This document shows, piece after piece, positions 9,703-64,000 of a stretch of 64,000 nucleotides of DNA. Below the pieces are notes generated by a model, which was not told the DNA's origin, searched no databases, and worked only from the letters and a program-made list of their open reading frames with translations. Made by a program: the position numbers and the translations under genes. Position 1 is the first letter of the stretch. Each line of letters starts with the position of its first letter. Origin of the DNA: an uncultured bacterium (GTDB lineage: Bacteria > Pseudomonadota > Gammaproteobacteria > Burkholderiales > SG8-39); assembly GCA_965233165.1 (NCBI GenBank), contig CBDDRX010000009.1, positions 20,209 through 84,208 on the forward strand, read 5' to 3'.

Positions 9703-11680
<1,978 letters not shown>

Positions 11681-11687
11681 GGGCTCC

Positions 11688-18855: not shown

Positions 18856-18895
18856 TGGATAGAATAGGCCCGCCGGATTCTACGGGATAAGCCTT

Positions 18896-20253: not shown

Positions 20254-21368
20254 TTCACGTCCACCACGTCAACCTGCAGCCCTTCGCGAGCGGCGGCGAG
20301 ACCTACGCCCACGCCCTCACCCGCGCGCTGCTGCAGGCCGACGCCGGCGTCACCCTGTACGCGCATCCCGAGAACCGCTTCTGGGACGACCTGCCGGTCA
20401 AGCGCGTGCTCGTCGCCGGCCCGGAGGCGATGGAGCCGGCGCTGCCGCAGGAGCGCTCCCTGCTGATCGTCCATACCCCGCTGCCCGAGGACATGGCGCA
20501 GCGCCTCGCCCGGCGCCACCTGCTCATCGGCGTCGCGCACATGCCGATGGTCGGCCGCGAGCCCGGCTGGCTGCGCCACTGCTCGCTGGTGGTGACGGTG
20601 TCGCGCTACTGCCTCGAGCTCCTGCGCAAGGCCGGCGTCCAGCAGCTCTATCCGGCGCCGCTCTACGGCGTGGCGGCGAAGCGCGGCAGCCCGTCCGCCG
20701 CGATCCTCAAGGCCTCGCCCTACTGGTGGGACAAGCGCAAGGCGCGCGACGTGGTGATGGGCAAGTTCGAGCCGCTCGCCAACATCTTCGCAAGACAGGC
20801 CTTCTACGAGAAGCGCCCCGGCCTCACGCTCGGCGTGGTGTCGATGATCGCGCCGATCAAGCAGTTCCCCGCCCTCTTCACGCATCTCGCGCCGATCCTC
20901 GCCCGCCACGGCGTCAACCTCGAGATCTTCGGTGCCGGCGGCTATGCGCAGGTGCGCGACACCAGGGAGGCCCTCGCCCCCCTCGGCGAGCGCGCCCGCT
21001 GGTGGGGCTACCAGAAGGACGTCGCCGCCGCCTACGCCAACATCGACTACCTGCTCACTGGCCTGCCGGAAAAGGAAGCGCTCGGCCTGAACGTCCTCGA
21101 AGCGCAGGCCTGCGGCACGCCGGTCCTTGCCCCGAACGCCCCGCCGTTCACCGAGACGGTGATCCATGGCCACACCGGCTTCCTCTACGCCGACCCGCGC
21201 ACCGACAAGGGCGCCGATTTCGAGCGGCTGCTCGCCCGCCTGAAGGACGCGCCGCGGCCCGATCCGCGGCGTGCGACGATCCACCTCTCGCAGTTCTCGC
21301 AGCACGCGCTCTTCGAGCGCACGCGGCGGATGCTCGACTACCTCTCCAGGAGCGGACACCGAACATGA
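20250..21368 (+). CDS. Glycosyltransferase (GT-B, GT4-like); start codon uncertain
   Basis: Frame of ORF 20079..21368. The homologous part begins about LIHVHHVNLQPFASGGETYAHAL. C-terminal block LTGLPEKEALGLNVLEAQACGTPVLAPN...ETVIHGHTGFLY. The first 57 track codons are an R/P/A-rich shadow overlapping the DUF4254 gene. Confidence 0.65.
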   Translation: MIHVHHVNLQPFASGGETYAHALTRALLQADAGVTLYAHPENRFWDDLPVKRVLVAGPEAMEPALPQERSLLIVHTPLPEDMAQRLARRHLLIGVAHMPMVGREPGWLRHCSLVVTVSRYCLELLRKAGVQQLYPAPLYGVAAKRGSPSAAILKASPYWWDKRKARDVVMGKFEPLANIFARQAFYEKRPGLTLGVVSMIAPIKQFPALFTHLAPILARHGVNLEIFGAGGYAQVRDTREALAPLGERARWWGYQKDVAAAYANIDYLLTGLPEKEALGLNVLEAQACGTPVLAPNAPPFTETVIHGHTGFLYADPRTDKGADFERLLARLKDAPRPDPRRATIHLSQFSQHALFERTRRMLDYLSRSGHRT

Positions 21369-22318
21369 AAGTGCTGGTCACCGGCGTCGCAGGGTTCATC
21401 GGCATGCATTGCGCGCGCAGGCTGCTCGCGCGCGGCGACAAGGTCGCCGGCCTCGACAACCTGAACGACTACTACGCGGTCAAGCTGAAGAAGGACCGGC
21501 TGAAGCAGCTGCCGGCGAAGAACTTCGCCTTCGAGAAGGTCGACCTCGCCGACGGCGCGGCCCTGCGGCGCTTCTTCCGCAAGCACAAGCCCGACGCGGT
21601 CCTGCACCTCGCCGCCCAGGCCGGCGTGCGCTATTCGATCGAGAACCCGGGCGCCTACGTCGACTCGAACCTCGTCGGCTTCGCCAACCTGCTCGAATGC
21701 TGCCGCGAGCGGCCGCCGCGCCACCTCGTCTACGCCTCGAGCTCGAGCGTCTACGGCAACAACCCGAAGCTCCCCTGGTCGGAGGCGCAGAGCGTCGACC
21801 GGCCGATCAGCCTGTACGCGGCGACGAAGAAGGCGAACGAGCTGATGGCGCACACCTACAGCCACCTCTTCGGCCTGAAGACCACCGGCCTGCGCTTCTT
21901 CACCGTCTACGGCCCGTGGGGCCGCCCGGACATGTCGCCGATGCTCTTCGCCACCGCGATCATGAAGGGCAAGCCGATCAACGTCTTCAACCGCGGCCGC
22001 ATGCAGCGCGACTTCACCTACATCGAGGACATCGTCGAAGGCACGATCCGCGTCCTCGACAAGCCCGCGCCGTACGAGCTCTACAACATCGGCAACCACC
22101 AGCCGGTCGCCCTGCGCGACTACATCGAGGCGCTCGAGCGCGCGTTCGGCAAGAAGGCGAAGCTGAAGATGCTGCCGATGCAGCCCGGCGACGTCGAATC
22201 GACCTACGCCGACACGAAGCGCCTTCGCGCCGCCGTCGGCTTCGCGCCGGCGACGCCGCTGCAGGCGGGGCTGGAGCGCTTCGCGCAGTGGTTCAAGGAC
22301 TACTACGGCTACCGCTGA
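21365..22318 (+). CDS. NAD-dependent nucleotide-sugar epimerase (UDP-glucuronate 4-epimerase-like SDR)
   Basis: 317 aa from ATG 21365. MKVLVTGVAGFIGMH..., YAATKKANE (YxxxK). The C-terminus resembles CapI/LpsL-type epimerases. Confidence 0.8.
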   Translation: MKVLVTGVAGFIGMHCARRLLARGDKVAGLDNLNDYYAVKLKKDRLKQLPAKNFAFEKVDLADGAALRRFFRKHKPDAVLHLAAQAGVRYSIENPGAYVDSNLVGFANLLECCRERPPRHLVYASSSSVYGNNPKLPWSEAQSVDRPISLYAATKKANELMAHTYSHLFGLKTTGLRFFTVYGPWGRPDMSPMLFATAIMKGKPINVFNRGRMQRDFTYIEDIVEGTIRVLDKPAPYELYNIGNHQPVALRDYIEALERAFGKKAKLKMLPMQPGDVESTYADTKRLRAAVGFAPATPLQAGLERFAQWFKDYYGYR

Positions 22319-22334
22319 GCCCTAGAATGCCGGC

Positions 22335-23759
22335 GTGAGTGCGAAGCTCTATCCCGTAGTGCTATGCGGCGGCAGCGGCAGCCGCCTCTGGCCGATGTCG
22401 CGGCGGCTCCTGCCGAAGCAGTTCCTGCCGCTCGTCACGGAGCGCTCGCTGCTCCAGGACACCGTGCAGCGGCTCGGCGCGATCGCCGACGCCATGCCGG
22501 CGATCGTCATCAGCAACCACGAGCATCGCTTCCTCGTCGCCGAGCAGCTCAACGAGCTCGGCCTGAAGCCCGACGTCCAGATCCTCGAGCCTGCCGGGCG
22601 GAACACGGCACCCGCGGTCGCCGTCGCCGCGCGGTATGTCGCCAAGCGGGACCCGGACGGGCTGGTGCTCGTGCTGGCCTCCGACCATGCGATTACCGAC
22701 CCGGCCGCGTTCGGCCGCGCGGTCGGCGCCGCCCGGCTTTCCGCCGAATCCGGCTTCATCACCACGTTCGGCATCACCCCGACCCACGCCGCGACCGGCT
22801 ACGGGTACATCGAGCGCGGCGCGCCGCTCGACGCACCGCAGAAGGCTTATCGCATCGAGCGGTTCGTCGAGAAACCGGATGCCGCCACGGCCGCGAAGTA
22901 CCTCGCCTCCGGCCGCTTCCTCTGGAACAGCGGCATGTTCGTCTTCCGCGCCGCCCAGTTCCTGCAGGAGCTGGGCCGGCTGCGGCCCGACATCCTCTCG
23001 GCCGCGGACAAGGCGCTCGCCGCCGCCACCCGCGACCTCGACTTCCTTCGCCTCGACGCGCAAACCTTCGAGGCCTGCCCGGCCGAGTCCGTGGACTACG
23101 CGGTGATGGAGAAGGTCGCCAACGGAGCCGTCGTGGCCGCGGACATGGGCTGGAGCGACGTCGGCTCCTGGTCCGCCCTCTGGGACATCGGCGGGAAGGA
23201 CGCCCAGGGCAACGTCAGCCGGGGCGACGTGGCGATGCGCGACGTGGCCGGCAGCTTCGTGCGCGCCGACAGCCGCCTTGTCTCCGTGCTCGGACTACGC
23301 GACGTTCTCGTGGTCGAGACGAAGGACGCGGTCCTCGTGGCGGATCGCGCGCGGGCGCAGGAGGTCAAAGACATCGTCGAGCAGCTCGACCGCGGCAAGC
23401 GCTCCGAGCACGTTTCCCACACGCGGGTCTACCGGCCGTGGGGCTACTACGAATCCATCGATTCCGGCCCGCGCTTCCAGGTAAAGCGCCTCATGGTGAA
23501 GCCGGGACACGCCCTCTCCCTGCAGCTCCACCACCATCGCGCCGAGCACTGGGTCGTGGTCTCCGGCACCGCGAAAGTCACGCGCGGCGAAGAAGTGATG
23601 ACCATCTCGGAGAACGAGTCGACCTACATCCCGATCGGCATGCGGCACCGCCTGGAGAACCCCGGCAAGCTGCCGCTGTACCTGGTCGAGGTCCAGTCCG
23701 GCAGCTACCTGGGAGAGGACGACATCGTGCGCTTCGACGACCAGTACGGCCGACCCTAG
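22335..23759 (+). CDS. manC: Mannose-1-phosphate guanylyltransferase / mannose-6-phosphate isomerase (bifunctional)
   Basis: 474 aa with a GTG start. YPVVLCGGSGSRLWPMSR and a C-terminal cupin (RPWGYYESID...HHRAEHWVVVSGTA). Confidence 0.9.
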   Translation: MSAKLYPVVLCGGSGSRLWPMSRRLLPKQFLPLVTERSLLQDTVQRLGAIADAMPAIVISNHEHRFLVAEQLNELGLKPDVQILEPAGRNTAPAVAVAARYVAKRDPDGLVLVLASDHAITDPAAFGRAVGAARLSAESGFITTFGITPTHAATGYGYIERGAPLDAPQKAYRIERFVEKPDAATAAKYLASGRFLWNSGMFVFRAAQFLQELGRLRPDILSAADKALAAATRDLDFLRLDAQTFEACPAESVDYAVMEKVANGAVVAADMGWSDVGSWSALWDIGGKDAQGNVSRGDVAMRDVAGSFVRADSRLVSVLGLRDVLVVETKDAVLVADRARAQEVKDIVEQLDRGKRSEHVSHTRVYRPWGYYESIDSGPRFQVKRLMVKPGHALSLQLHHHRAEHWVVVSGTAKVTRGEEVMTISENESTYIPIGMRHRLENPGKLPLYLVEVQSGSYLGEDDIVRFDDQYGRP

Positions 23760-25594
23760 GCCGAAGTCCCTCCCGGGGCGGGGCGGTACTCGGGGATCCA
23801 TTCCATCAGCTTCGCCCTGACTTGCGTGGCGGAGACGCCTTCCTCCGCTGGCAGGGTCCACGCCAGAACGTCAGTCAACAGGCTTGCGGGATCGCCGGGC
23901 CTGCGCGCCTTCGCAACCCGCAGCTTCAGGTGCGGCGTCGGCAGGCTGTGCTCATCGTCGGTCAGGAGCTCCTCGTAGAGCTTCTCGCCAGGCCGCAGGC
24001 CGACGTAGGTGATCGGAATTTGGGACTGCGAATACCCCGAAAGGCGGATGAGCTCCCTGGCGAGCTCCGAGATGCGCACCGGCTTGCCCATGTCCAGCAT
24101 GAAGATCTCCCCGCCCTTCCCCATCATCGCCGCCTGCAACACCAGCTGCGCAGCTTCGGGGATCGACATGAAGTAGCGCTCGACCTCCGGGTGCGTGACG
24201 GTCACGGGCCCTCCGCGGGCGATCTGCTCCCGGAATCGCGGCACGACGCTGCCTGTCGAGCCCAGCACGTTGCCGAAACGGACGGTCACGAACGCGGTGC
24301 CGCCTTGCGACTCGAGGCACTGGCATACCAGCTCGGCAAGCCGCTTGGACGCCCCCATGACACTCGTCGGGTTTACTGCCTTGTCGGTCGATACGAACAC
24401 GAACTTTTCCGCTCCCGCGTCGCGTGCGGCCCCGCCCGTTACCAGCGTGGAGCGCACGTTGTTCAGGACCGCCTGGTGCGCGTTGTCCTCCTCCATGAGG
24501 GGCACGTGCTTATAGGCGGCCGCATGGAAGACCACCTGCGGCCGGTGCTCGCGGAAGATCTGTCCCATGCGCGCGGCATCCTTCGCATCGCCGATCACAG
24601 GAACAACAGGGACGGCCAGGGGACCGTCCGCGAACTCGCGCTCGATGGAATAGAGCGCAAACTCCGAAAGGTCGTGAAGCAGCAGGCGGGCAGGCGCGAA
24701 GCGCGCGATCTGCCTGCACAGCTCCGAGCCGATCGAGCCTCCCGCGCCGGTCACGAGGACAACCTTATCCTTGAGGAAGGCGGACAAGCCGGCGTCGTCC
24801 AGCTCCACGGGGTCGCGGCCGAGCAGGTCGTCCAGCTCCACGTCGCGCAGGGCCGAGATACTGACGCGGCCGGAAATGATGTCGTCGTGCGCGGGCACGG
24901 TCATCACGCGAACCTTCGCTTCGGTGCAGAAGTCGACGGCGCGCCGGCGCGCTTCGTGCGATGCGCCCGGCATCGCGATCACGGCCTGGTCCACGCCGAG
25001 GCGCTTCGCGACGGCGGCGACGTCCTCCATTCGGCCGATGACCTTCACGCCCCGGATCGCCCCGCCCTGCTTGGCGGCATCGTCGTCGAGCAGGCCGACC
25101 ACCCGCCATGCGGAGTCCTGCTCGAGGTCTCGAAGAAGGCGTGCCGCCGCTTCGCCGGCGCCGAGGACCATGACCCGCTTCGCCTTCAATGCCGGAGAGC
25201 TCGCGGCACGCCGCTCCAGCCATGCGCGAACGGCCAGCCTGGAACCCGCGAGCAGAAGGGCCAGGATGAGCGGGCTCATCCAGTAGACACCGCCCGGAAC
25301 CGGATCTGCCTTGAGTGCGCGCAGCATCAGCGGAACCGCTATCGCCCCGACCGCTACCGCGGCGACGATCCGGGTTAGCTCGTGGACGCCGGCGTAGCGC
25401 CATAGTCCACGGTGCAGGCCGAACGCCAGAAAGGCTGCCGCGTAAGTCACGCCGACATAGCTAAGCCGCTCTGCCATCGATTCGAGCACCGCGGGGTCGG
25501 GCACGAAGTCGAAGCGCACCAGAGTCGCCAGCGTCCATGCGAGCAGGGCCATGGCGACGTCCCAGGCGAACGCAATCGGGGTGCGGAAACTCAT
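23756..25594 (-). CDS. Membrane-anchored nucleotide-sugar 4,6-dehydratase (CapD/WbpM/PglF family)
   Basis: 612 aa. Four N-terminal hydrophobic segments, then VLGAGEAA and LVTGAGGSIGSEL Rossmann motifs and VMGASKRLAE. Confidence 0.85.
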   Translation of the reverse strand: MSFRTPIAFAWDVAMALLAWTLATLVRFDFVPDPAVLESMAERLSYVGVTYAAAFLAFGLHRGLWRYAGVHELTRIVAAVAVGAIAVPLMLRALKADPVPGGVYWMSPLILALLLAGSRLAVRAWLERRAASSPALKAKRVMVLGAGEAAARLLRDLEQDSAWRVVGLLDDDAAKQGGAIRGVKVIGRMEDVAAVAKRLGVDQAVIAMPGASHEARRRAVDFCTEAKVRVMTVPAHDDIISGRVSISALRDVELDDLLGRDPVELDDAGLSAFLKDKVVLVTGAGGSIGSELCRQIARFAPARLLLHDLSEFALYSIEREFADGPLAVPVVPVIGDAKDAARMGQIFREHRPQVVFHAAAYKHVPLMEEDNAHQAVLNNVRSTLVTGGAARDAGAEKFVFVSTDKAVNPTSVMGASKRLAELVCQCLESQGGTAFVTVRFGNVLGSTGSVVPRFREQIARGGPVTVTHPEVERYFMSIPEAAQLVLQAAMMGKGGEIFMLDMGKPVRISELARELIRLSGYSQSQIPITYVGLRPGEKLYEELLTDDEHSLPTPHLKLRVAKARRPGDPASLLTDVLAWTLPAEEGVSATQVRAKLMEWIPEYRPAPGGTSA

Positions 25595-26730
25595 CGGCGG
25601 GATTCTAGCGAGGCGTACTCCGCGAGCAGCGCAGCGTTCATCCGCGCTGAGTCGAAGTCGCGGCGCACGCGCTCGCGCGCGGCTGCGCCGAGCCTTGCGC
25701 GCAAGGCGTCCTGCGTCAGCACGCGATGCAGAGCCTCCTGCAAGGCGGCCGCATCCTTAGGCGGCACGAGCAAGCCGGTTTCCCCGTCCACGACGGCATC
25801 GGCAAGGCCGATGATCCGCGTACCCACGCAGGGCACACCCAGCGCCGCCGCTTCGAGGACGACGATGCCAAAGCCTTCGCGATAGCTCGGCAGACACAAC
25901 GCGTCGGCCATGGCGAGATAGGACTCCGGCCTTGGCTGGTATCCGACCGCATGGATCGCGGGGTTGCGGCGGACCTCTTCCAGGGTTCTCGGCGGGAGCG
26001 GATCGCGCTCCGGCTCAAGCGGGCCGACCAGGACGAGGGCCGCGCCCGTCAGTCCGCGGAAGGCTTCCACGAGCTCCATGACGCCTTTGTCTCGCGTGAC
26101 GCGTCCGACGAAGACCACGACCTTGTCGCCGGGCGGAATCGACAGTGCCGCCCGAGCAGCGAGCGCCTCGCCGCGCAGTTTGTCGAGGTCGAAGCGCTCG
26201 AGATCGACCCCCGCGAGCGAGCCCATGCCCTGCACATGGATCTCTCCGGCGCGCGCAATTCCCTCCTGCATCAGGTAGTCGCGCTGGGAGGTGCTATCAG
26301 CGTAGGCCCTGGAATCGAGCCGCACGATCACCCGGTCCGCCATACGGCTCGCCCATCGCGTCAGGCCGCTGCGCGTTGCCCACGCCTGACCCGTGAACGT
26401 GTGCAGGCGGATCGGAACGCCGGCGAGCCATCCCGCGATCGCGGAAAGCAATCCGGCCTTCGGGGTGATGGAATGAACCAGATCGGGCTTGAGGCGCATG
26501 AAGACCCGAACCAGCCGGAACAAGGCGAGCAGGTCCGCCAGGGGAGAGATTTCGCGCGGGATGTCGACGAGCACTACCCCGGCGACGCCCAGCCGCGAAA
26601 CCGCTTCGGCGCCTTCGAGGCGGCCGGTGATGACGTAGACCTCATGGCCGGCGGCGACGCTCGCGCGAATCTGTCCCTCAAGGTGGTGGAGCACGACGAA
26701 TGGAATGGTGGCGACGCGGACGATGCGCAT
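25591..26730 (-). CDS. Glycosyltransferase family 4
   Basis: Start moved to ATG 26730 (MRIVRVATIPFVV...). C-terminal block LPSYREGFGIVVLEAAALGVPCVGT...VVDGETGLLV. The 47 upstream track codons are R/A/G-rich shadow. Confidence 0.8.
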   Translation of the reverse strand: MRIVRVATIPFVVLHHLEGQIRASVAAGHEVYVITGRLEGAEAVSRLGVAGVVLVDIPREISPLADLLALFRLVRVFMRLKPDLVHSITPKAGLLSAIAGWLAGVPIRLHTFTGQAWATRSGLTRWASRMADRVIVRLDSRAYADSTSQRDYLMQEGIARAGEIHVQGMGSLAGVDLERFDLDKLRGEALAARAALSIPPGDKVVVFVGRVTRDKGVMELVEAFRGLTGAALVLVGPLEPERDPLPPRTLEEVRRNPAIHAVGYQPRPESYLAMADALCLPSYREGFGIVVLEAAALGVPCVGTRIIGLADAVVDGETGLLVPPKDAAALQEALHRVLTQDALRARLGAAARERVRRDFDSARMNAALLAEYASLESRR

Positions 26731-26732
26731 GC

Positions 26733-27992
26733 TCAGCGCGCCACCATGCCGCGAAGGAACCCGTCCAGGACGCGCGCCTGGGCCTCCCGCGAATAGGGCT
26801 CGAGGCCTTCCTCGGGTAGGTCTGGCGAGCGCCCGCCCCCGCGCTTCGCGAGCGCGCCTTCCTTCAGCCACGCCGCCAGAGCCGCCGCGTCGCGCGAGAC
26901 GAAGCCCCTCCTGTCCCGCGTGATCAGCGCGCCGGTTTCGCTCGCGGGATCACCGACCCCAAGGATGGGCCGGCGAGCGCCGAGATACTCGAAGAGCTTC
27001 GCAGTCAGAACGCCTTCGCCGGCGACGCCATTCCAGCAGAAGAAGAGAAGGGCGTCGGCGCCGGCCTGCAGGCGGAGCGCATCCTCCCGTGCGATGGTAG
27101 GCGCGATGTCGAACAGCGCCGCAGCCCGCGATGCCCGGACGGCTTCCTCTGCCGCACCGAGGTTTCGACCGCGAAGCGTGATGCGCAGTTCCTGCGGCCC
27201 CAGGCCGGACGCTTCCACGGCGCCCACGAGCGCGTCAACGTCGTACGCCTTGTACAGGCTGCCGGTGTAGGCGACATGGAACGGACCATCGGCGCTCGCT
27301 GACATCGTCCGAAGGTCGTGTGCGTCATAGCCGTTCGTCACTACCCGGATCGGCAAGCGGAATCTCTTCGCCAGGCGATCGGCGAGGGGCTGCGACACGG
27401 TCACCGCTGCCGAGGCGCCCGCGAGCACGCGCTCTTCCTGGCGTGCCTCGATGCGATGGCGCCAGGCCGGGTAGTCGTAGGCATGGTTGTCGGTCCACAG
27501 ATCGCGGTACTCGGCGACCCATGGCACGCCGTTTTCGCGGGCGAGCGCCGCGGCAACGGTGAAGGCAGTGAAGGGCGGCGCGCTGGCATAGAGGAGATCG
27601 AGGGGGCCGGCGCTGCGCAGCAGACGGCGCCCCGCTTCCATCGCTGGCTCCCGCCAACCGGTCTGCGCGTCAGGCCAGTGCAGCACGGTTCTATAGAAAC
27701 GGGCCATGCGCCCGAGCATCCCGCGGCGGGCACCCCCGGCATAGCCTGATTGCGCCACCCGGCGGCGGCCCAGCAGGAAGTCGACGGGCGCGTTGCGATT
27801 GCTCCAGGCCGTCGCCGTGATGCGGTCCTTCCCAAGCGCGCAGTCGAGGCCGGTTGGAAAGGGCTGACGATCCGCCGTCAGGACAAACACGTCGTGCCCG
27901 AGCCGCTGCAGCCATTCGGCGAGCCTTGTTGCACGAACCGCGCCGACGGAGTTGTAGGGCGCGAAGTAAAAGGAAATGAAGAGGATGCGCAC
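26733..27992 (-). CDS. Glycosyltransferase family 4 (WbuB-like)
   Basis: 419 aa. MRILFISFYFAPYNSVGAVRATRLAEWL... GT-B architecture. Confidence 0.72.
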   Translation of the reverse strand: MRILFISFYFAPYNSVGAVRATRLAEWLQRLGHDVFVLTADRQPFPTGLDCALGKDRITATAWSNRNAPVDFLLGRRRVAQSGYAGGARRGMLGRMARFYRTVLHWPDAQTGWREPAMEAGRRLLRSAGPLDLLYASAPPFTAFTVAAALARENGVPWVAEYRDLWTDNHAYDYPAWRHRIEARQEERVLAGASAAVTVSQPLADRLAKRFRLPIRVVTNGYDAHDLRTMSASADGPFHVAYTGSLYKAYDVDALVGAVEASGLGPQELRITLRGRNLGAAEEAVRASRAAALFDIAPTIAREDALRLQAGADALLFFCWNGVAGEGVLTAKLFEYLGARRPILGVGDPASETGALITRDRRGFVSRDAAALAAWLKEGALAKRGGGRSPDLPEEGLEPYSREAQARVLDGFLRGMVAR

Positions 27993-27998
27993 GAGGCG

Positions 27999-34192: not shown

Positions 34193-34200
34193 CCCCGCGC

Positions 34201-35139: not shown

Positions 35140-35169
35140 TGAATCTCCTTGAAAATCCTCGAGATTTTA

Positions 35170-41619: not shown

Positions 41620-41621
41620 GG

Positions 41622-45338: not shown

Positions 45339-45379
45339 GGGCGCGCGCCGGGCGCTCGGGCCGCTAGAATTCGCCGCGC

Positions 45380-46363: not shown

Positions 46364-46374
46364 GCGATATGGCA

Positions 46375-47280: not shown

Positions 47281-47299
47281 CGCGGCCCCCCTTTGTTCC

Positions 47300-53415: not shown

Positions 53416-53419
53416 GATG

Positions 53420-55819: not shown

Positions 55820-55850
55820 ACGAGCGATGAAGGAGCGACCTGGGGGCCGG

Positions 55851-56609
55851 CTACCAATCGACGTCCTCCCGTCGGGACTCGCGCAGCACATCTCGGTACC
55901 ACTGGCGAACTTTGTCGGAGCGTCCCTGCACGCAACGTTCCACGCGTTCCCTTGGCGACATGACGTCGTCCTGCCAGTACTCTGGGTGCGTTAGTACTTG
56001 GAGGCGCGCGTCGGCACTAGAGCGCAGCACATCCTCAAGTCGGCGATACCGCCAGTATCCGTTGGAATCCGAGCAATAGCCCACCTCGTTCCGGAAATAC
56101 GCGGAGTAGGTGTTTGTCAAGCCCGCGTACTCCTCCGCTCGAAAGCGATCACTGAGGGCATCAGGAATGTGAAAAGAGAATGCGTCAACGGGCCTTTCCA
56201 GGATGCGCTCGAGTATCGCTTTCTCAAAATCCAGTGCCTTGGCGAGCGCGTCCTCGTTCGTAACGGACCAGAACTGGTGATCGAAGTGGACTCCGACACG
56301 ATGCCCAAGCGCGACGATGCGCCGCGCGAGCTCAACGCACTCTCGCTCCAGAAAATTGTAGAACTCGCTGTGCAGTAGGAAGAAGTAAGTCGCAATCACT
56401 CCTTGGCGCGCCTCGATTTCCGCAAGCTTCACTGCGGCGTGGATGGAGAAATCCAGATCGTGACGCCACAGCACAGAGCCCTGCGCACGATCATGATCCC
56501 GATATGTGCGAAAGTTGTATCGAGCCAAGGCAAGCTCGAGCAAACGGGCATAGTTGTCGCGGGTGAAGTCCGCAAAGTGGTACCTCGTCGAGTTGGCGGT
56601 CTTGCGCAT
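55851..56609 (-). CDS. Hypothetical protein, possibly polysaccharide-deacetylase-like (weak assignment)
   Basis: 252 aa. VLWRHDLDFSIHAAVKLAEIEARQGVIATYFFLLHS, GHRVGVHFD and LTHPEYW are reminiscent of divergent CE4-type deacetylases. I have no confident family match from memory. Confidence 0.35.
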   Translation of the reverse strand: MRKTANSTRYHFADFTRDNYARLLELALARYNFRTYRDHDRAQGSVLWRHDLDFSIHAAVKLAEIEARQGVIATYFFLLHSEFYNFLERECVELARRIVALGHRVGVHFDHQFWSVTNEDALAKALDFEKAILERILERPVDAFSFHIPDALSDRFRAEEYAGLTNTYSAYFRNEVGYCSDSNGYWRYRRLEDVLRSSADARLQVLTHPEYWQDDVMSPRERVERCVQGRSDKVRQWYRDVLRESRREDVDW

Positions 56610-56613
56610 GTCT

Positions 56614-57414
56614 TCAACGTTGCGGGCGTACCTTGTAGAACAGATTGCGGCGCCAGGGATCGATCTTCCTTACTTCCCGCTGGGCGATCATCATGCCAAC
56701 CTCCTGCAAGTATCTTTCGAAGTCCTGGGTGCTAAATCGCTTGAAATGAAATCGATCTTCCGCCCCTTCGGGAATCTTTAGGCTCTCATACCAAGAATGG
56801 GTCTTCGCTGGCTTAGGGACGCCCTTGTCTTTCTCACCTAGCCAAATGCAGATTTCTCCGTCTGCGAGTAGAACCCGAGCGGCTTCGCGCAGCGCCGGTC
56901 TCGGATCGATAAAGTGGTCGAGCGACGTCACGAAGAGGACTTGATGGAAAATTTCATCTCGAAACGGTAGGAACTCTCCCAGCGCCCGCACGAATGCGAA
57001 GCACCGCGGTTGCGAACCTACAAGCGGATCAACGCCGACGAAGAACGCCTCTTTCGCCTCGGAATGCTCTATATGCGTGGGGCATTTTTGTGGTCCGACT
57101 CCGACGTCTAGGACCCTGCCGCGGAAACCGCAGAACTGGGCGAACTCGAGGAAATCTTGGCGCTTGCCAACACCCAAGTTGTGCTCGGGGTCGGCTTCGT
57201 AGGAAACAACGCCGTTTGCCTGGAGTTGTTCCCACGTTTTCCACTCGTTGCGCTGGAACTCCGGATGCGCCTCGGGCATAAAATCCCAGAAGCCGTCCCG
57301 GTGTCGATACCGTTCTCCGCGCGGGGACACTAGGTCCTCACCAACGAGACGTAGCGGAGCTTTTGTGACTGGACAGGCCAACCAGTCGAGCGGAATCTCT
57401 ACTTCTCTATTCAC
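56614..57414 (-). CDS. SAM-dependent methyltransferase with an N-terminal Trm112-like segment
   Basis: 266 aa. DWLACPVTKAPLRLVGEDLVSPRGERYRHRDGFWDF, then VLDVGVGPQKC and LADGEICIW. Confidence 0.65.
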   Translation of the reverse strand: MNREVEIPLDWLACPVTKAPLRLVGEDLVSPRGERYRHRDGFWDFMPEAHPEFQRNEWKTWEQLQANGVVSYEADPEHNLGVGKRQDFLEFAQFCGFRGRVLDVGVGPQKCPTHIEHSEAKEAFFVGVDPLVGSQPRCFAFVRALGEFLPFRDEIFHQVLFVTSLDHFIDPRPALREAARVLLADGEICIWLGEKDKGVPKPAKTHSWYESLKIPEGAEDRFHFKRFSTQDFERYLQEVGMMIAQREVRKIDPWRRNLFYKVRPQR

Positions 57415-58286
57415 GTTTGCTCCCCGGATGCATCTATCGTGCGAATTAACCCCTGCTTGAGCGGCACCAAGGGGCCAACGGGCACCAAACGCGCCAGCTT
57501 CATCACGTTCCCGATTAGGCTGATCGGCTGCTCGTCAGTGGTGCGGATACGGGCTTTCCGGCCCAGCAGGGACTCGATGGTTTCGACGACCTCCGCCAGC
57601 GTGACCACCTGGTCGCCGCCAATGTTCACGACCTCGTACGAGGTAGGCTGCGGGGCTTCGCTTAGAGCGGCCAGAATTCGCGCGCAGTCATCGATGTAGA
57701 GAGGATTGACCTTCAGGCCAATCCCGCGCGCCAGCGTGATCTCATCGCCCTGCCTGACGCGCTTGATCATCTGGGGAAACAATGTGCCTTGCTGCCCAGG
57801 CCCATAGACTCCAAACAATCTCGTCACCAGAACCTCGAACAGGCTTGAGAACGGGCGTAGGAGAACCTCGGCCGCAAGCTTGGACGCGGCATACATGGTG
57901 TGCGCCTGGGTCGGCTGCGCCTCGTCCGCCGGGGTCCGTGTGTCGCCATAAACGTTGCCGGTTGAAGCGAAAATCATTCTCTGGACTCCGGCGCGTGACG
58001 CCCATTCGGCGAGCTCCATCGTGGCGTCCACGTTAACCGCACGGACGTCCTCTACGCCTAACGGAAAGTCGCGATATCGGCTCGACTGGGCAAGGTGGAA
58101 GACGACATCGGCTTTGGCCGGCAACCGGCGAGTCCACCCTCGTTCTCCTAGGTCCGCCTGGATGGCAATTCCGTGCGCAGGCTGTCGCCGTCCGACACTG
58201 ACAATTTCGACGTTCCCACCCGCTGCCAACACCGCTGTTAGATAGCCGCCAATGAATCCGGTCGCGCCAGTGACGAGTGCCCGCAT
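57411..58286 (-). CDS. NAD-dependent epimerase/dehydratase/reductase (SDR)
   Basis: 291 aa. MRALVTGATGFIGGYL and YAASKLAAE. Confidence 0.75.
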   Translation of the reverse strand: MRALVTGATGFIGGYLTAVLAAGGNVEIVSVGRRQPAHGIAIQADLGERGWTRRLPAKADVVFHLAQSSRYRDFPLGVEDVRAVNVDATMELAEWASRAGVQRMIFASTGNVYGDTRTPADEAQPTQAHTMYAASKLAAEVLLRPFSSLFEVLVTRLFGVYGPGQQGTLFPQMIKRVRQGDEITLARGIGLKVNPLYIDDCARILAALSEAPQPTSYEVVNIGGDQVVTLAEVVETIESLLGRKARIRTTDEQPISLIGNVMKLARLVPVGPLVPLKQGLIRTIDASGEQT

Positions 58287-58301
58287 CTCAGAATCGGTCG
58301 C

Positions 58302-59297
58302 TCACTTTGAGGCCGCCTTGCGGCGCGCATCCACTTCGGCCATATGGGCCCGTCGCCAGGCGATCAGCTCCTGCAGCCCCTGTTCGAGCGGCAGTCCGGC
58401 CTCGAAACCGATCTCCTTCTCAGCGCGGACCGGCGAGCCGATTCGGTTGCGGACCAGCGTCGCCTGGCTGCGAGGCGCGTACTGGATCGGCTTCTTGCAG
58501 TTCGTGAGGCGCACTAGCATCTCGGCCAATTCCTTGAGCGAGGTGCGCGTCCCGGTTCCAACGTTGTAGAAGCGATCGATGGTGTCCGCCTTCATTGCAC
58601 AGACGTTCGCGCGGCCGCAATCGCGGACGCTGACGAAGTCGAATGCCTCGGTACCATCGCCGAGGATCGTCGGCCCCTCCCCGCGATCGATTGCGTCGAG
58701 CATCTTCATGATTACCGCGATGTAGGCGCCACGGTAGTCCTGGCGCGGCCCATAGACGTTCATGTATCGGAGGCCGACGTAGTTCAGCCCATAGCGGTAG
58801 TGGTACGCACGCGCCATCGCCTCGCCGCAGATCTTGGTCGCGCCGTAGAAGTTCTTGTTGTTAAAGGGGTGTTCCTCGCTCATCGGCTCCTCGACCGCAT
58901 CGCCATACACCGAGGCGGACGAGGACCAGACGAGGCGCTGCACCTTGTTGGCGACGCAAGCCTCCAGGACGTTGAATGTGCCGCGCACATTCACGTCGAA
59001 GGCCGAGCGGGGATACTCGTGGCACTGCAGGAGCCACAGCGCGGCGAGATGGAAGACGCCGTCCATGCCTTTCACCGCCGAGTCGAGGATGTCGGTCTGG
59101 CAGATGTCGCCGCCGACCTCGTAGATGCGCACGCGCGGATCGCGCAGCGCCGAGGCGAGGTTCTCGTGCGTCCCGCGCAGGAAATTGTCATAAATGCGGA
59201 TCTCCGCCACATCTTCCTTCACGAGCTCGTCGACGACGTGCGAGCCGATCAGGCCCGCGCCGCCGATCACCAAGAGCTTCTTTCCTTGGATATCCAT
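58302..59297 (-). CDS. NAD-dependent epimerase/dehydratase (extended SDR)
   Basis: The track start 59309 is TTG. ATG 59297 (MDIQGKKLLVIGGAGLIGSHV) is preceded by GAGGAAACAG. YGATKICGE. Confidence 0.8.
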   Translation of the reverse strand: MDIQGKKLLVIGGAGLIGSHVVDELVKEDVAEIRIYDNFLRGTHENLASALRDPRVRIYEVGGDICQTDILDSAVKGMDGVFHLAALWLLQCHEYPRSAFDVNVRGTFNVLEACVANKVQRLVWSSSASVYGDAVEEPMSEEHPFNNKNFYGATKICGEAMARAYHYRYGLNYVGLRYMNVYGPRQDYRGAYIAVIMKMLDAIDRGEGPTILGDGTEAFDFVSVRDCGRANVCAMKADTIDRFYNVGTGTRTSLKELAEMLVRLTNCKKPIQYAPRSQATLVRNRIGSPVRAEKEIGFEAGLPLEQGLQELIAWRRAHMAEVDARRKAASK

Positions 59298-59305
59298 CTG
59301 TTTCC

Positions 59306-60403
59306 TCAAGCAGCCGCGCGCAGCGCGCGGTCAAGGGTTTGCACGACGGTGCGCTGATCCGCTTCTGACAAGTCGGCGCTCATCGGAAGGCTCAGGACCT
59401 CCCGCGCCAGCTTTTCGGAGATGGGATAGGACAGGCCACGGTATCCGTCGGCGTAGGCCGGCTGCTGATGCAAAGAAAGCGGATAGTGGACTGCGCTCGG
59501 CACGCCGGCCTTCTTGAGCTCGCCCTGGACACGCTCGCGATCGGCCACGCGGACGGTGAACTGTGCGTAGACGCTGGTGCGGTCCGCCTTGACCTGAATC
59601 CGCTTCACACCAGCGCCGAGCTGTGCCTCATACGCTAGGCCGATCTCGATGCGCTGCTTGATCTCCCACTCGAACCGCTGCAGCTTGGCGAGGACGACGG
59701 CGCACTGCAGGGTGTCCATCCGGCCGCCGACGCCGATGCGCGTGTGATTGTAGCGACCGCTCTGGCCGTGGACCCGGATCTCGCGCATGGCCTTCGCCAA
59801 GGCGTCGTCGCTGGTGAAGATCGCGCCGCCGTCGCCATAGCAGCCGAGGGGCTTGGAGGGGAAGAAACTGGTGCAGCCGATCGTCGAGAGATTGCAGCTT
59901 TTCCGGCCCTTGTAGTGGGCGCCAAAGCTCTGCGCGGCGTCCTCAATCACGGGGATACCGCGTTGCTTTGCAATCGCGTTGATCTCATCCATGTCCGCGG
60001 GCTGGCCGTAGAGGGACACCGGCATGATCGCCTTCGTGCGGGGTGTGATCGCCGTGGCGAGCTTCATCGCATCGAGATTTGCAGTGCCCTCCTCGACGTC
60101 CACGAACACCGGCATCGCGCCGAGCAGAGCGATGGTTTCGACGGTGGCGGCGAAGGTAAACGGCGTCGTGACGACCTCGTCCCCCGCCTTGATGCCGAGC
60201 GCCATCATCGCGATGAGGAGCGCCTCGGTGCCCGAGGCGACGGTGATGCAGTGCTTCGCGCCGGTGTAGGCCTCGAGCTTTTCCTCCAGCTCGCGCACTT
60301 CCGGGCCCATGATGTACTGGCCGTGGTCGAGGACGCGCTGGATGCGCGCGTCGACGTCGGCCTTGATGGCGCGGTACTGCGCCTTCAGATCAGTGAACTC
60401 CAT
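59306..60403 (-). CDS. wbpE: DegT/DnrJ/EryC1-family aminotransferase, WbpE-type (UDP-2-acetamido-2-deoxy-3-oxo-glucuronate aminotransferase)
   Basis: Start at ATG 60403 (MEFTDLKAQYRAIKADVDARIQRVLDHGQYIMGPEV...). PLP-lysine region SFFPSKPLGCYGDGGA. Synteny with wbpA/B/D. Confidence 0.85.
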   Translation of the reverse strand: MEFTDLKAQYRAIKADVDARIQRVLDHGQYIMGPEVRELEEKLEAYTGAKHCITVASGTEALLIAMMALGIKAGDEVVTTPFTFAATVETIALLGAMPVFVDVEEGTANLDAMKLATAITPRTKAIMPVSLYGQPADMDEINAIAKQRGIPVIEDAAQSFGAHYKGRKSCNLSTIGCTSFFPSKPLGCYGDGGAIFTSDDALAKAMREIRVHGQSGRYNHTRIGVGGRMDTLQCAVVLAKLQRFEWEIKQRIEIGLAYEAQLGAGVKRIQVKADRTSVYAQFTVRVADRERVQGELKKAGVPSAVHYPLSLHQQPAYADGYRGLSYPISEKLAREVLSLPMSADLSEADQRTVVQTLDRALRAAA

Positions 60404-60746
60404 GCTTGGCCTCCGCGCCAACTTCGCGCTTCAGTTCTTCGATCTCCTGCTGGATGTCCTCGTACTCCTTCATCTTCCGTTTCAGGAAAGCCGCGGTCGC
60501 TCGCACTTTCGCGTCCGCTCCCTTCGGAGTCAGGTAGTACGCGTAGGCCAGCTTGTTCTGGCTGTCGCGGAAGTTGCGAACCTTAACGAGCCCCCGATCG
60601 AGGAGCGCGCGCAGGGAGTAATTCACCTTGCCGACGCTGACGCCAAGCTCTTCCGCCAGCTGGCGCTGGCTGATCTCTGGGTTGGCCTGGAGGAGCCGGA
60701 GGAGCCGGAAGCGGGTTTCTTCGTCGAGCACCGGGGGTGCGTTCAA
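60390..60746 (-). CDS. MarR-family, EPS-associated winged-helix transcriptional regulator
   Basis: 118 aa. RFRLLRLLQANPEISQRQLAEELGVSVGKVNYSLRALLDRGLVKVRNFRDSQNKLAYAYYLTPKG plus a coiled C-terminus. Its 3' end overlaps the wbpE start by 14 nt. Confidence 0.7.
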   Translation of the reverse strand: MNAPPVLDEETRFRLLRLLQANPEISQRQLAEELGVSVGKVNYSLRALLDRGLVKVRNFRDSQNKLAYAYYLTPKGADAKVRATAAFLKRKMKEYEDIQQEIEELKREVGAEAKHGVH

Positions 60747-60772
60747 TTGTTGAACGCGCGATTAGACCCCCG

Positions 60773-61357
60773 TTAATCCGCCCCGTCAAGTTTGAGGGTC
60801 CCGCCTGAAAGGCGGTACCGCTCGCCGGTATGGCCGCAGACCGCGGTGCCGTCGCCCTCCACGGGCAGGTCGAGCTGCTCGCCGAAGCGGCTCATCCAGC
60901 CCTTCTGGCGCGCGGGCACGCCGAGCATGAGAGCGAAGGCCGGGACGTCTCGGTTTACTACGGCGCCGGCGCCGATGAAGGCGTGCTCGCCGATGGTTAC
61001 GCCACACACGATCGTGCAGTTGGCGCCCAAGGTAGCGCCTCGCTTCACGAGCGTCTTCCTGTACTCGTCCTTGCGTGAGATTGCCGAGCGGGGGTTGTAG
61101 ACGTTGGTGAAGACCATGCTCGGGCCGCAGAAGACGTCGTCCTCCAGCGTCACCTCGTCGTAGACCGAGACGTTGTTCTGGATGCGGACGTTGTTGCCGA
61201 TGACGACGCGGTTGCCTACGAAGACGTTCTGGCCAAGTGCACATCCGCTGCCGATTCGCGCGCCGGCGCACACGTGCACAAAATGCCAGACGCGGGTGCC
61301 ATCGCCGATCCGCGCACCTTCATCAACGATCGCAGAGGGATGGATCGTCGCGACCAT
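60773..61357 (-). CDS. wbpD: Hexapeptide-repeat N-acetyltransferase, WbpD-type (UDP-GlcNAc3NA 3-N-acetyltransferase)
   Basis: 194 aa. [29 protein letters not shown]... left-handed beta-helix repeats. Synteny with wbpB and wbpE. Confidence 0.85.
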
Positions 61358-62415
61358 CAGTAGTCGAGGGGCAGGTTCACCCGGCTGCCGTCGCGCGCCG
61401 AGAGGTAGGTGGCGATCAGGAGCTCGAGCGACTTGAGGCCTTCGCGGCCGTCGGTCTCCGGCTCGGCTTCGCCGCGCAGGGTCTTGATGACGTTCTCATA
61501 GTAGAGCGGGTGGCCGAAGCCGTAGACCGAGGTGGTCTGGTAGCTCGCTTCCTTCACCTTGTCGTCTTCGGGGCGCTTGTCCGCGAATTCCCAGTGCTGG
61601 ATCTCGTTGACGGCCACGCCACCGATCCGCACGGTGCCCTTCTCGCCGAAGATCGTGATCGAGCCCTCGAAGTTCTTCGGGTACGCGAGCATGGTCACGT
61701 TCATCGTGCCCAGGGCGCCGGAGCGCCAGCGCACGGCCATGACCCCGGTGTCCTCGACCTCGATGTCGCGCGCGAGCGTCGCGGTGTAGGCCTGGAGGCT
61801 CTCCACCGGGCCGATCAGCCAGTCGAGCAGGTCCACGTAGTGGCTCGCCTGGTTCATGAAGGCGCCGCCGTCGAACTCCCAGGTGCCGCGCCACTCGGCG
61901 CTGTCGTAATAGGACTGGGGCCGGTTCCAGAACACGTTGACCGTCACCATGTACATGCGGCCGAAGCGGCCCTGCTCGACGGCGCTCTTGAGAAGCTGCA
62001 GCGTGGCATTGCGGCGGTTCTGCTTGACCACGAAGAGACGCACGTGCGCGGCGTCGCAAGCCGCCACCATGCGCTTGCCGTCCTCCCAGCGGGTGGCCAT
62101 CGGCTTCTCGGTGATTACGTGCTTCCCGGCCTTCGCGGCGGCGATCGCCTGCTCGGCGTGCAGGCCGCTCGGCGTCGCGACGATCACGACGTCGGCGTCG
62201 GACTTCTCGAGGAGCTCGTCATAGCTTCGGTATCCGGGCGCTCCGCTCGCTTCCTGCGCCGCCTTCAGCGCAGCGGGGTCCACGTCGCAGACGCCGACGA
62301 TCTCGGCATCCTTCGCATGCTTCTTCAGCGCCTCGATGTGGTTCTTTGAGATGCGGCCGCAGCCTGCAACGGCGAAGCGGATCCGGTGGCCGGTGATCGA
62401 GGGGAAGCTTTGCAT
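61357..62415 (-). CDS. wbpB: Gfo/Idh/MocA oxidoreductase, WbpB-type (UDP-GlcNAcA 3-dehydrogenase)
   Basis: 352 aa. [19 protein letters not shown] and [11 protein letters not shown]. Lies between wbpA and wbpD. Confidence 0.85.
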
Positions 62416-62416
62416 G

Positions 62417-63736
62417 CTAGGCCTTGATGACGTTCGGCGAGCGCTCGAGGTAGACCCCGCGCGTGTCGACGATGAGCCGGGCGTGCTTCTTCACAAGCTC
62501 GTAGTCGAAGGAATCGTGGTTGGTCGCCAGCAGCACGAGGTCGAAGCCGGCGATGCGCTCCGGCGTCAGGGGCACGCTCTTCAGGTCGAACTTGTGCTCG
62601 CGCATCTTCGGGAACACCGGCACGTGCGGATCCGAGTACTCGACCGCGGCGCCGCGCTTGACCAGGAGCTCCATTAGCTCGACCGCGGGCGACTCCCGCA
62701 TGTCGTCGACGTTCTTCTTGTAGGCGATACCGAGCACCAGGACCTTGCTCCCCTTCAGCGCTCTGCCGCGCTCGTTCAGCGCCTCCATCACCTTGCCGAT
62801 CACCCACTCCGGCATGTTGCGGTTGATCTCGCCGGCGAGCTCGATGAAGCGCGTGTGCAGCCCGTAGGCGCGCGCCTTCCACGTTAGGTAGAACGGGTCG
62901 ATCGGGATGCAATGGCCGCCCAGCCCCGGCCCCGGCCAGTACGCGACGAAGCCGAACGGCTTGGTCGCCGCGGCGCGGATCACCTCGTGCACGTCGATGC
63001 CCATGCGGTCGCAGATGATCTTCATCTCGTTGACTAGGCCGATGTTCACCGCGCGATGGATGTTTTCCAGGAGCTTGGTCATCTCCGCAGCCTGGGTGGA
63101 ACTCACCGGGACAACCTTCTCGATCGCGCCCTGGTACAGCGCCTTGCCGACGTCGAGGCAGTCCGGCGTCGTTCCGCCGCAGACCTTCGGGATCCGTCGT
63201 GTGTCGAAGTCCGGGTTGCCCGGGTCCTCGCGCTCCGGTGAGAAGACGAGAAAGACGTCCTGTCCGACCTTCCAGCCCTGCTTCTCGATGCGCGGCCGGA
63301 GCTCCTCCTCGGTCGTGCCGGGATACGTCGTGCTCTCCAGCGAGACGACCTGTCCGACCCGGAGGTGCGGCACGATAGCTTCCGTCGTGCCGATGACGAA
63401 GCTCAGGTCCGGCTCGCGGAATGCATTGAGCGGCGTCGGCACGCAGATGATCAGCGCGTCCGCCTCCTTCGCACGCGCGAAGTCGGCGGTCGCTTCAAAA
63501 CCCTTCCTGCGGGCCTCGGCGATAGACTCGGCCTTGATGTGCTCGATGTAACTCTTGCCAGCGTTCAGCGCCTCAACTTTCGCACGGTCGATATCGATTC
63601 CGAGGACTCGGAAACCGAACTCTGAGAACCGCAGCATGAGCGGGAGTCCGACGTAACCGAGGCCCAGGATGCCGATAACCGCCTTCTTGGATGCGAGGCG
63701 GTCGAGGAGTTGTTGTTTTGCGGCGACGGGACTCAT
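62417..63736 (-). CDS. wbpA: Nucleotide-sugar 6-dehydrogenase, WbpA-type (UDP-GlcNAc 6-dehydrogenase)
   Basis: Start at ATG 63736 ([11 protein letters not shown]...[18 protein letters not shown]). Catalytic Cys region [11 protein letters not shown]. Confidence 0.82.
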
Positions 63737-63771
63737 GGAGTTCGCTGATAAGGCGCCAAAAAAGGGCGCGA

Positions 63772-64000
63772 TTATGACACGCCGTAGAACTGCCGGTACC
63801 ACTCGACGAAGCGGCGGATCCCTTCCTTCACCGTCGTCTTCGGCGCGAAGCCGATATCGCGTTTGAGGGCTTCGACGTCCGCGAACGTGTCAGCGACGTC
63901 GCCCGGCTGCATGGGCATCAAGTTCTTGAGGGCCTTCTTGCCCAGCGCATCCTCGATCTCCTCGATGTAGCGCATGAGCTCGACGGGCTCGCTATTGCCA
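63772..64000 (-). CDS. C-terminal end of a second UDP-glucuronate-4-epimerase-like SDR (gene continues past the right edge)
   Basis: ...[65 protein letters not shown] aligns with the C-terminus of 21365..22318 (...YIEALERAFGKKAKLKMLPMQPGDVESTYADTKRLRAAVGFAPATPLQAGLERFAQWFKDYYGYR*). Confidence 0.7.

Follow-up and report, generated by a model that had tools for sequence, protein, structure and literature searches.

The homopolymeric O-chain of Bordetella lipopolysaccharide (LPS) is built from 2,3-diacetamido-2,3-dideoxy-L-galacturonic acid (L-GalNAc3NAcA), part of it in the uronamide form (PMC2279256, PMC2615507). A five-enzyme pathway to UDP-ManNAc3NAcA has been described (PMC10622841), and the Bordetella proteins WbmF, WbmG and WbmH are proposed to turn this intermediate into UDP-L-GalNAc3NAcA (PMC2279256, which also assigns their PDB codes). 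The Bordetella genes run wlbL-wbmA...wbmN and then into a variable region (PMC3849452). The locus encodes the ATP-binding cassette (ABC) transporter wzm/wzt and three glutamine amidotransferases (wbmC, wbmI, wbmZ), and the chain bears a special capping sugar (PMC2615507); WbmE is variable among strains (PMC2615507, PMC12243275). Here we describe a surface-glycan locus in a 64,000-nt stretch (the window) of contig CBDDRX010000009.1, assembly GCA_965233165.1, from an uncultured soil bacterium. Judging by homology, we put at about 0.8 the probability that these genes form a single LPS O-antigen locus of the Bordetella wlb/wbm type with export by an ABC transporter. The product is most likely an O-antigen of L-GalNAc3NAcA and its uronamide, whose chain probably receives a cap and is exported through a Wzt with a carbohydrate-binding domain.

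The backbone chemistry is readable from characterized homologues, which point to the Bordetella wlb/wbm route to L-GalNAc3NAcA(N). The window encodes the complete WbpA/B/E/D/I (Wlb) set, and in a sequence search against solved structures four of these five enzymes have a characterized enzyme as their top PDB match. The WbmF, WbmG and WbmH homologues, all short-chain dehydrogenases/reductases (SDRs), complete the route.

62417..63736, minus strand: nucleotide-sugar 6-dehydrogenase, WbpA role (NCBIfam TIGR03026, 430 bits, cut-off 190)
61357..62415, minus strand: WlbA/WbpB 3-dehydrogenase (PDB 3q2i, E 2e-179; 3q2k, E 4e-172)
59306..60403, minus strand: WbpE/WlbC 3-aminotransferase (Pseudomonas aeruginosa WbpE, PDB 3nyu, E 7e-132; Pfam DegT, E 2e-118)
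60773..61357, minus strand: WlbB/WbpD N-acetyltransferase (PDB 3mqg, E 9e-98)
31138..32217, minus strand: UDP-GlcNAc3NAcA 2-epimerase, WbpI/WlbD type (PDB 8sxv, E 1.5e-136; NCBIfam wecB, 322 bits against a cut-off of 210)
32214..33260, minus strand: WbmF homologue (PDB 2pzj, B. bronchiseptica WbmF, E 1.7e-163)
33257..34192, minus strand: WbmG homologue (PDB 2pzk, E 2e-156; 73% identity over 308 residues)
34201..35139, minus strand: WbmH homologue (PDB 2q1w, E 5e-164; 76% identity over 309 residues)

We take 3q2i and 3q2k to be WlbA and 3mqg to be WlbB, after the work of Thoden and Holden listed in PMC10622841. The entry matched by the 2-epimerase, 8sxv, is a UDP-2,3-diacetamido-2,3-dideoxy-glucuronic acid 2-epimerase, and the next family follows at E 3.5e-89. 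The 6-dehydrogenase exceeds the cut-off of the NDP-sugar dehydrogenase subfamily model only, and the UDP-ManNAc and TviB equivalog models score under theirs. By homology, the five enzymes would convert UDP-GlcNAc to UDP-ManNAc3NAcA, in the order 6-dehydrogenase, WlbA/WbpB, WbpE/WlbC, WlbB/WbpD and WbpI-type 2-epimerase, and WbmF/G/H would then yield UDP-L-GalNAc3NAcA.

Gene order around the wbmFGH trio also resembles that of Bordetella. Reading from the dehydratase, the window carries WbpM/WlbL-type, glycosyltransferase (GT), GT, AsnB, GT, 2-epimerase, F, G, H, AsnB, GT and GT, which fits wlbL-wbmA..K by position and family with the 2-epimerase in the wbmE slot as the sole exception.

23756..25594, minus strand: WbpM/WlbL-type membrane-anchored UDP-GlcNAc 4,6-dehydratase, last gene of array A (Pfam Polysacc_synt_2, E 4e-110, and CoA_binding_3)
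25591..26730, minus strand: GT4 glycosyltransferase, wbmA position (Pfam Glycos_transf_1, E 7e-35; 44% identity to the terminal GT4 of metagenomic loci L081 and L085)
26733..27992, minus strand: GT4-like glycosyltransferase, wbmB position (Pfam Glyco_transf_4, E 1e-14)
27999..30011, minus strand: AsnB-type glutamine amidotransferase 1, wbmC position (Pfam Asn_synthase, E 1e-80, and GATase_7; N-terminus MCG)
29999..31141, minus strand: GT4-like glycosyltransferase, wbmD position (Pfam Glyco_transf_4, E 2e-7)
35170..37065, minus strand: AsnB-type amidotransferase 2, wbmI position, travels with wbmFGH (Pfam Asn_synthase, E 1e-88)
37065..38486, minus strand: GT4 glycosyltransferase, wbmJ position (Pfam Glyco_trans_1_4 and Glyco_transf_4, E about 7e-14)
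38483..39727, minus strand: GT4 glycosyltransferase, wbmK position (Pfam Glycos_transf_1, E 2e-23)
39724..41619, minus strand: AsnB-type amidotransferase 3 (Pfam Asn_synthase, E 9e-107; NCBIfam TIGR03108, 613 bits, under the cut-off of 817)

Four AsnB-type genes are candidates for uronamide formation, two of them at the wbmC and wbmI positions as judged by position and family. The four proteins are 30-38% identical to one another and all begin Met-Cys-Gly. Amidotransferase 2 is 80%, 71% and 56% identical to the wbmH-adjoining AsnB of the metagenomic loci L081, L085 and L084, respectively. One or more of the four may turn the C-6 carboxylate into the uronamide. Chain assembly by GT4 enzymes, together with two GT-B enzymes of an unmodelled family, would take place in the cytoplasm on a primer linked to undecaprenyl; the sugar of this primer would probably come from the WbpM/WlbL dehydratase.

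The exporter is encoded in the other part of the locus, which also holds the methyltransferase domains and a block of accessory genes.

45380..46363, plus strand: S-adenosylmethionine (SAM) methyltransferase whose N-terminus is Cys-rich and Trm112-like (Pfam Methyltransf_11, E 1e-21)
46375..47280, minus strand: SAM methyltransferase, last gene of array B (Pfam Methyltransf_11, E 9e-17; 54% identity to the L085 methyltransferase)
47300..49432, minus strand: bifunctional 710-aa protein (p710) with an N-terminal GT-B domain and a C-terminal SAM methyltransferase domain (residues 498-602)
49429..50685, minus strand: divergent GT-B glycosyltransferase (weak Pfam Glycos_transf_1, E 2e-5; 58% identity to a gene in L084)
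50658..51863, minus strand: Wzt, ABC-transporter ATPase with a C-terminal carbohydrate-binding domain (Pfam ABC_tran and Wzt_C)
51860..52711, minus strand: Wzm, ABC-2 permease (Pfam ABC2_membrane; six hydrophobic segments)
52708..53415, minus strand: WbqC-family protein (Pfam WbqC, E 7e-57)
53420..53944, minus strand: GNAT N-acetyltransferase, PseH-like (Pfam Acetyltransf_3, E 3e-16; NCBIfam PseH, 61 bits, under cut-off)
53945..55819, minus strand: AsnB-type amidotransferase 4 (Pfam Asn_synthase, E 6e-91; N-terminus MCG)
55851..56609, minus strand: 252-aa protein (sole match polysaccharide deacetylase, very weak, E 0.055; no hydrophobic segment)
56614..57414, minus strand: SAM methyltransferase (Pfam Methyltransf_11, E 6e-7)
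57411..58286, minus strand: SDR, candidate sugar reductase or epimerase (Pfam Epimerase, E 1e-39)
58302..59297, minus strand: SDR of WbpP/WbgU type, candidate UDP-HexNAc(A) 4-epimerase (PDB matches including 6dnt, E 1e-43, WbgU and WbpP)

The Wzt_C domain of Wzt (residues 278-389) scores 39.4 bits in Pfam against a cut-off of 30.4. The best PDB match of Wzt is a chain of 8dku (E 3e-56), and its best matches include Wzt-like and TagH exporters. Export that depends on recognition of a chain cap by Wzt is known from the E. coli O8/O9a and Aquifex aeolicus Wzm-Wzt systems, and the Wzt_C domain and the neighbouring methyltransferase domains would fit such cap-dependent export. A cap, perhaps a methyl group or else a modified sugar from the lower-GC block (WbqC to the SDRs), would be added to the chain and recognized by the carbohydrate-binding domain of Wzt. 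Wzm/Wzt would then export the finished chain, and a WaaL encoded elsewhere would attach it to lipid A-core.

GC content dips to 57-61% at about 52000-58500, against 63-73% elsewhere in the window. The dip holds WbqC, GNAT, AsnB4, the 252-aa gene, a methyltransferase and an SDR, and it suggests that a variable block was gained by horizontal transfer. In analogy to the variable region of Bordetella, this block may make a cap or linker sugar. Two of the methyltransferases have a short Cys-rich Trm112-like N-terminal stretch (45380-45500, plus strand, and 57300-57414, minus strand; e.g. LHCPEH...CPRGCRFPFVRGIPRF).

The locus adjoins LPS inner-core genes, namely waaC (17923-18855, 352 bits) and waaA (16700-17926, Pfam E 1e-68), with further core-type glycosyltransferases in the same upstream flank. 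The O-antigen reading is thus supported because waaC and waaA adjoin, Wzt carries Wzt_C, and the wbmFGH trio and the Wbp set match characterized enzymes. A capsule or a secreted exopolysaccharide (EPS) would instead be suggested by the MarR-family 'EPS-associated' regulator embedded in the array, by sub-threshold matches of AsnB3 and the GT4s to XrtA/PEP-CTERM EPS families, and by the lack of an O-antigen ligase in the window. We consider this product unlikely, given that no Wza/Wzc, KpsD/E/C/S or exosortase genes are found, that a Wzt with Wzt_C is typical of O-antigen export, that waaC, waaA and further core glycosyltransferase genes directly adjoin the locus, and that the closest characterized system is an O-antigen. 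The regulator gene (listed below) lies between the wlbB and wbpE homologues and overlaps the wbpE start by 14 nt.

60390..60746, minus strand: MarR-family EPS-associated transcriptional regulator, 118 aa (NCBIfam TIGR04176, 154.9 bits, cut-off 88)

Several points weigh against an O-antigen of the Bordetella type. No gene of the 64-kb window matches Bac_transf or Glycos_transf_4 (WecA), the families of initiating transferases, and no WaaL O-antigen ligase was found in it. There is no Transglut_core match in the window, as would be expected of a WbmE-type (transglutaminase-like) periplasmic deamidase. The wlb band-A genes do not form a block here, and the variable half (39.7-58.3 kb) is without a demonstrated Bordetella counterpart. 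Direct comparison with Bordetella covered five PDB proteins; for the GT and AsnB genes, orthology to wbmA-D and wbmI-K is proposed from position and family. The product might instead be another stereoisomer or a heteropolymer, and both the expression of the genes and their product are predicted from sequence.

The window edge, or a gene at a distance, explains the lack of an initiating transferase better than a hidden enzyme in the locus would. The minus-strand array is cut by the window edge because minus-strand positions 63775-64000 encode the C-terminus of another SDR epimerase, and because the array continues past 64000 on a source contig of 95.5 kb, the initiating enzyme and the ligase may lie outside the window. 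The preliminary description, made from the letters and open reading frames (ORFs), had reported that wzx, wzy, wzz, a ligase and an initiating transferase are all missing, and Pfam and NCBIfam families (Wzy_C, Wzx and Wzz for the first three) agree for every window gene. It had placed the initiating step either elsewhere or in an unrecognized protein of the locus. The second option is disfavoured by the rejection of the candidates below, and the first fits better, where 'elsewhere' may be merely the next few kilobases past the edge. The only polytopic proteins in the window are Wzm, MBOAT and the WbpM-type protein, and the N-terminal half of the latter (23756..25594) resembles only the non-catalytic half of WbaP-type transferases.

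Three candidates for a hidden initiating transferase were rejected: a 353-aa protein is a DltD-like SGNH enzyme, the p710 N-domain is a soluble GT-B, and the 252-aa protein has no membrane segment. As a candidate ligase, ORF 16532-18004 on the plus strand is an artefact, the real gene being waaA on the other strand.

The genes of the locus lie in two arrays. The window is GC-rich (62-73%). Real genes were separated from shadow ORFs by codon-position GC and checked with Pfam and NCBIfam scans, which reproduced the two minus-strand arrays of 17 and 16 genes described earlier: array B, from 63736 down to 46375 (with the 118-aa MarR-type gene counted), and array A, from 45338 down to 23756 (MBOAT counted once). 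The arrays had been called back-to-back, which is wrong, as they lie in tandem on the same strand. The nine tight junctions cited are all 4-nt ATGA/GTGA overlaps (9/9), and the remaining junctions are overlaps of 1-28 nt or gaps of at most 31 nt. ABC2_membrane and ABC_tran matches bear out a wzm/wzt-type surface-glycan locus, and Pfam also confirmed the four AsnB-type proteins, four methyltransferase domains, MBOAT, GNAT and WbqC. Two counts had to be lowered: there are 8 glycosyltransferase genes in place of about ten, 2 of them recognizable only weakly or by fold, and 8 SDR genes in place of nine, including the plus-strand epimerase at 21365-22318 and the partial one at 63775-64000. The window-edge cut, a frameshift in MBOAT, the embedded MarR-EPS regulator and the adjoining waaC/waaA had been absent from that account.

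Between the arrays lies the plus-strand methyltransferase gene (45380-46363), the sole plus-strand gene inside the locus, which is real by its GC at third codon positions (GC3, 0.79 overall and 0.77-0.85 along the gene) and its Pfam match (E 1e-21). This interruption, the divergence of the first gene of array A from it with only 41 nt between start codons (45338/45380), and the variation of GC content along the region could mean that two independent glycan systems lie side by side; the convergent stops at the other end (46363/46375) are 11 nt apart. We regard such a pair as slightly less probable still than a capsule. Array A holds WbmFGH and WbpI, whereas the four upstream substrate-making enzymes and the exporter are all in array B; L084 and L085 hold genes of both arrays in one cluster; and no promoter-like or terminator-like site was found at 44900-47400. 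Wider promoter and terminator scans gave counts not above shuffles.

The proposed O-antigen locus also includes a putative acylation pair and a second gene of the unmodelled GT-B family.

41622..42683, minus strand: membrane-anchored DltD-like SGNH-fold acyltransferase, predicted MBOAT partner (motifs and predicted fold)
42683..44142, minus strand: MBOAT (DltB/AlgI-like), split in two frames at 43273-43276 (Pfam MBOAT matches both halves)
44142..45338, minus strand: first gene of array A, a GT-B glycosyltransferase of an unmodelled family (28% identity to p710 over 326 residues; weak Pfam Glyco_trans_1_2, E 5e-9)

The 353-aa DltD-like protein has no Pfam match. It carries an N-terminal anchor, and G68-x-S70 and D297-x-x-H300 are invariant in 49 homologues. 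Its AlphaFold2 model (predicted local distance difference test, pLDDT, 93.5) has the DltD entries 6o93 and 6pfx as top PDB fold matches, and the protein is predicted to be the acyl-transfer partner of MBOAT. The MBOAT gene has a 1-nt deletion inside the conserved FWRRWH motif (break at 43273-43285), and one added G restores the reading; this is either a pseudogene or an assembly error. The pair would O-acylate the exported polymer and is probably inactive here. Decay of the whole cluster, with loss of polymer production, might be hinted at by this frameshift in a catalytic motif and by a nearby GT2 gene lacking a canonical start codon. It is the least credible alternative of all, since only 1 of 37 genes was found disrupted and only an accessory decoration is affected, the catalytic Cys is kept in 4/4 AsnB proteins, codon bias is preserved throughout, and the single indel may be an assembly error of the metagenome-assembled genome (MAG).

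For the O-antigen reading, the two members of the unmodelled family are good candidates for chain-building or terminating transferases. The p710 N-domain (410 residues) has no Pfam match. Its AlphaFold2 model (pLDDT 88) matches GT-B enzymes such as BshA, PimB' and TarM in Foldseek, and p710 is a candidate chain extender or terminator. Homologues of this domain are widespread in metagenomes, often as free-standing proteins or in fusion with GT4-like or methyltransferase domains. The product of 44142-45338 is its paralogue, and each related wbmFGH locus (L081, L084, L085) likewise has two members of the family. We offer as a tentative and rather doubtful extension that the locus encodes an unusually heavily amidated, methyl-capped diacetamido-uronamide O-antigen whose chain is built by this widespread Pfam-less GT-B family. 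If true, the family would be the long-missing L-GalNAc3NAcA polymerase family, and the fusion of glycosyltransferase and methyltransferase a new type of chain terminator for systems with a Wzt carbohydrate-binding domain.

Comparison with related loci, as proposed in the preliminary description, identified a core of AsnB-WbmH-WbmG-WbmF-GT-2-epimerase-GT4 that is common to three metagenomic loci, L081, L084 and L085/L086. L081 comes from a forest-soil metagenome and carries a Transglut_core gene between wbmG and wbmF. L085 also has wzt/wzm, a methyltransferase 54% identical to the product of 46375-47280 and a p710-like GT, and L086 ends in a ManC gene on the opposite strand, as in the window. 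A metagenome search with the 710-aa protein gave one distant locus, L084. A similarity search of genome contigs with Wzt gave, among the matches listed, only unrelated loci with at most 39% identity over the ATPase domain and no other gene in common with the window. Soil and other metagenomes contain many WbmF homologues of 70-89% identity, and among the nearest non-identical matches of the window ThiC, at 89-93%, are proteins whose names refer to Burkholderiales or Betaproteobacteria MAGs.

The locus type is recurrent in environmental bacteria because the three metagenomic loci hold the same core, and the Bordetella-type L-GalNAc3NAcA(N) pathway is thus not peculiar to a pathogen. The environmental loci provide comparative material for asking which glycosyltransferase polymerizes the Bordetella chain and which amidotransferase makes the uronamide. 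Beyond that comparative value, the locus is a routine serotype-like O-antigen cluster.

The flanks carry three further genes.

21365..22318, plus strand: SDR nucleotide-sugar epimerase, left flank (Pfam Epimerase, E 5e-60; GC3 0.96)
22335..23759, plus strand: bifunctional GDP-mannose pyrophosphorylase/phosphomannose isomerase of ManC type, convergent with the array (NCBIfam TIGR01479, 684 bits, cut-off 373; also found at the end of related loci)
63775..64000, minus strand: 3' end of an SDR epimerase whose gene runs off the window (frame open to the stop at 63775-63777; weak GDP_Man_Dehyd C-terminal match)

The two epimerases are paralogous and bracket the locus in inverted orientation, with 36/73 residues in common in the shared C-terminus (aligned part 63778-63999). 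Their DNA forms the inverted repeat I2, and they could be recombination anchors for locus exchange; a repeat search returned only paralogue-derived similarity. ManC and the WbpM-type gene converge at 23756-23759, where their stop codons overlap by 4 nt, too tightly for a terminator to fit between the genes. At 63765-63783 (minus strand), exactly between the partial flanking epimerase and the dehydrogenase start at 63736, there is a terminator-like hairpin with a T-run, although terminator counts across the region are not above shuffles. The RfaH ops motif occurs at chance level only.

Upstream of the locus, a GT2 core glycosyltransferase gene (18884-19648, plus strand) appears intact. No ATG, GTG or TTG precedes its domain, and translation from the earliest canonical start, at 19052, would omit the first ~60 domain residues. 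Extra frameshifts suspected at 18.9-20.3 kb proved to be separate intact genes. Neither Rfam at the gathering threshold nor a tRNA scan gave a match in the window. A thiamine pyrophosphate (TPP) riboswitch at 11565-11683 (minus strand), upstream of thiC, is missed by the default Rfam scan because its 52.9 bits fall just below the gathering score of 54.3.

The locus can be set beside three described systems. With capped polymannan export in E. coli O8/O9a and with the Aquifex aeolicus Wzm-Wzt system it shares the Wzt_C domain and methyltransferase domains beside the transporter. Unlike E. coli O8/O9a, it has no WbdD-like kinase or coiled-coil terminator, its candidate terminator being the GT-B/methyltransferase fusion, and its Wzt C-terminal domain is without close relatives among the loci compared. 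The P. aeruginosa Wbp pathway has a homologue here for all five steps, WbpE and the 2-epimerase being best PDB matches, and a WbpM-type dehydratase stands at the cluster end in both. The P. aeruginosa B-band O-antigen is Wzx/Wzy-dependent and initiated by WbpL, whereas the window has Wzm/Wzt and no WbpL was found in it; here the product would also be carried further by WbmFGH.

The closest counterpart is the wbm locus of Bordetella bronchiseptica and B. parapertussis, together with the wlb genes beside it. Both use the ABC-transporter (wzm/wzt) pathway and keep the wbmF-G-H trio adjacent and in the same order, with amidotransferases at the wbmC and wbmI positions, GTs at the wbmA, B, D, J and K positions and a WlbL-type dehydratase at the end; WlbA, WlbB, WlbC and WlbD homologues would supply the precursor, and the lower-GC variable block is plausibly cap-making. 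In contrast to Bordetella, which has a separate wlb block, the wlbA-C homologues and the 6-dehydrogenase are built into the far end of one cluster; the 2-epimerase replaces wbmE, so that no periplasmic deamidase is encoded; there are four amidotransferases rather than three; and the initiating transferase wlbG is absent from the window. MBOAT and its DltD-like partner, four methyltransferase domains, WbqC, GNAT, the MarR-EPS regulator and the two GT-B genes whose family is unmodelled are additional here, and the genes belong to an uncultured soil bacterium instead of a Bordetella.

Nine of ten window proteins checked are present in a collection of ~15 billion sequences, and each is alone or nearly alone in its 90%-identity cluster; for this reason no near-identical locus is known. 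The preliminary description had expected a 'chemically elaborate, probably undescribed glycan', which holds in that no near-identical characterized cluster exists and is overstated as to the chemistry, since the backbone can be read from Wbp/Wbm homologues. We conclude that the locus is a mosaic, related to the wlb/wbm O-antigen locus of Bordetella: no near-identical locus is known, yet the chemistry predicted from its enzymes follows the well-studied Bordetella pathway.

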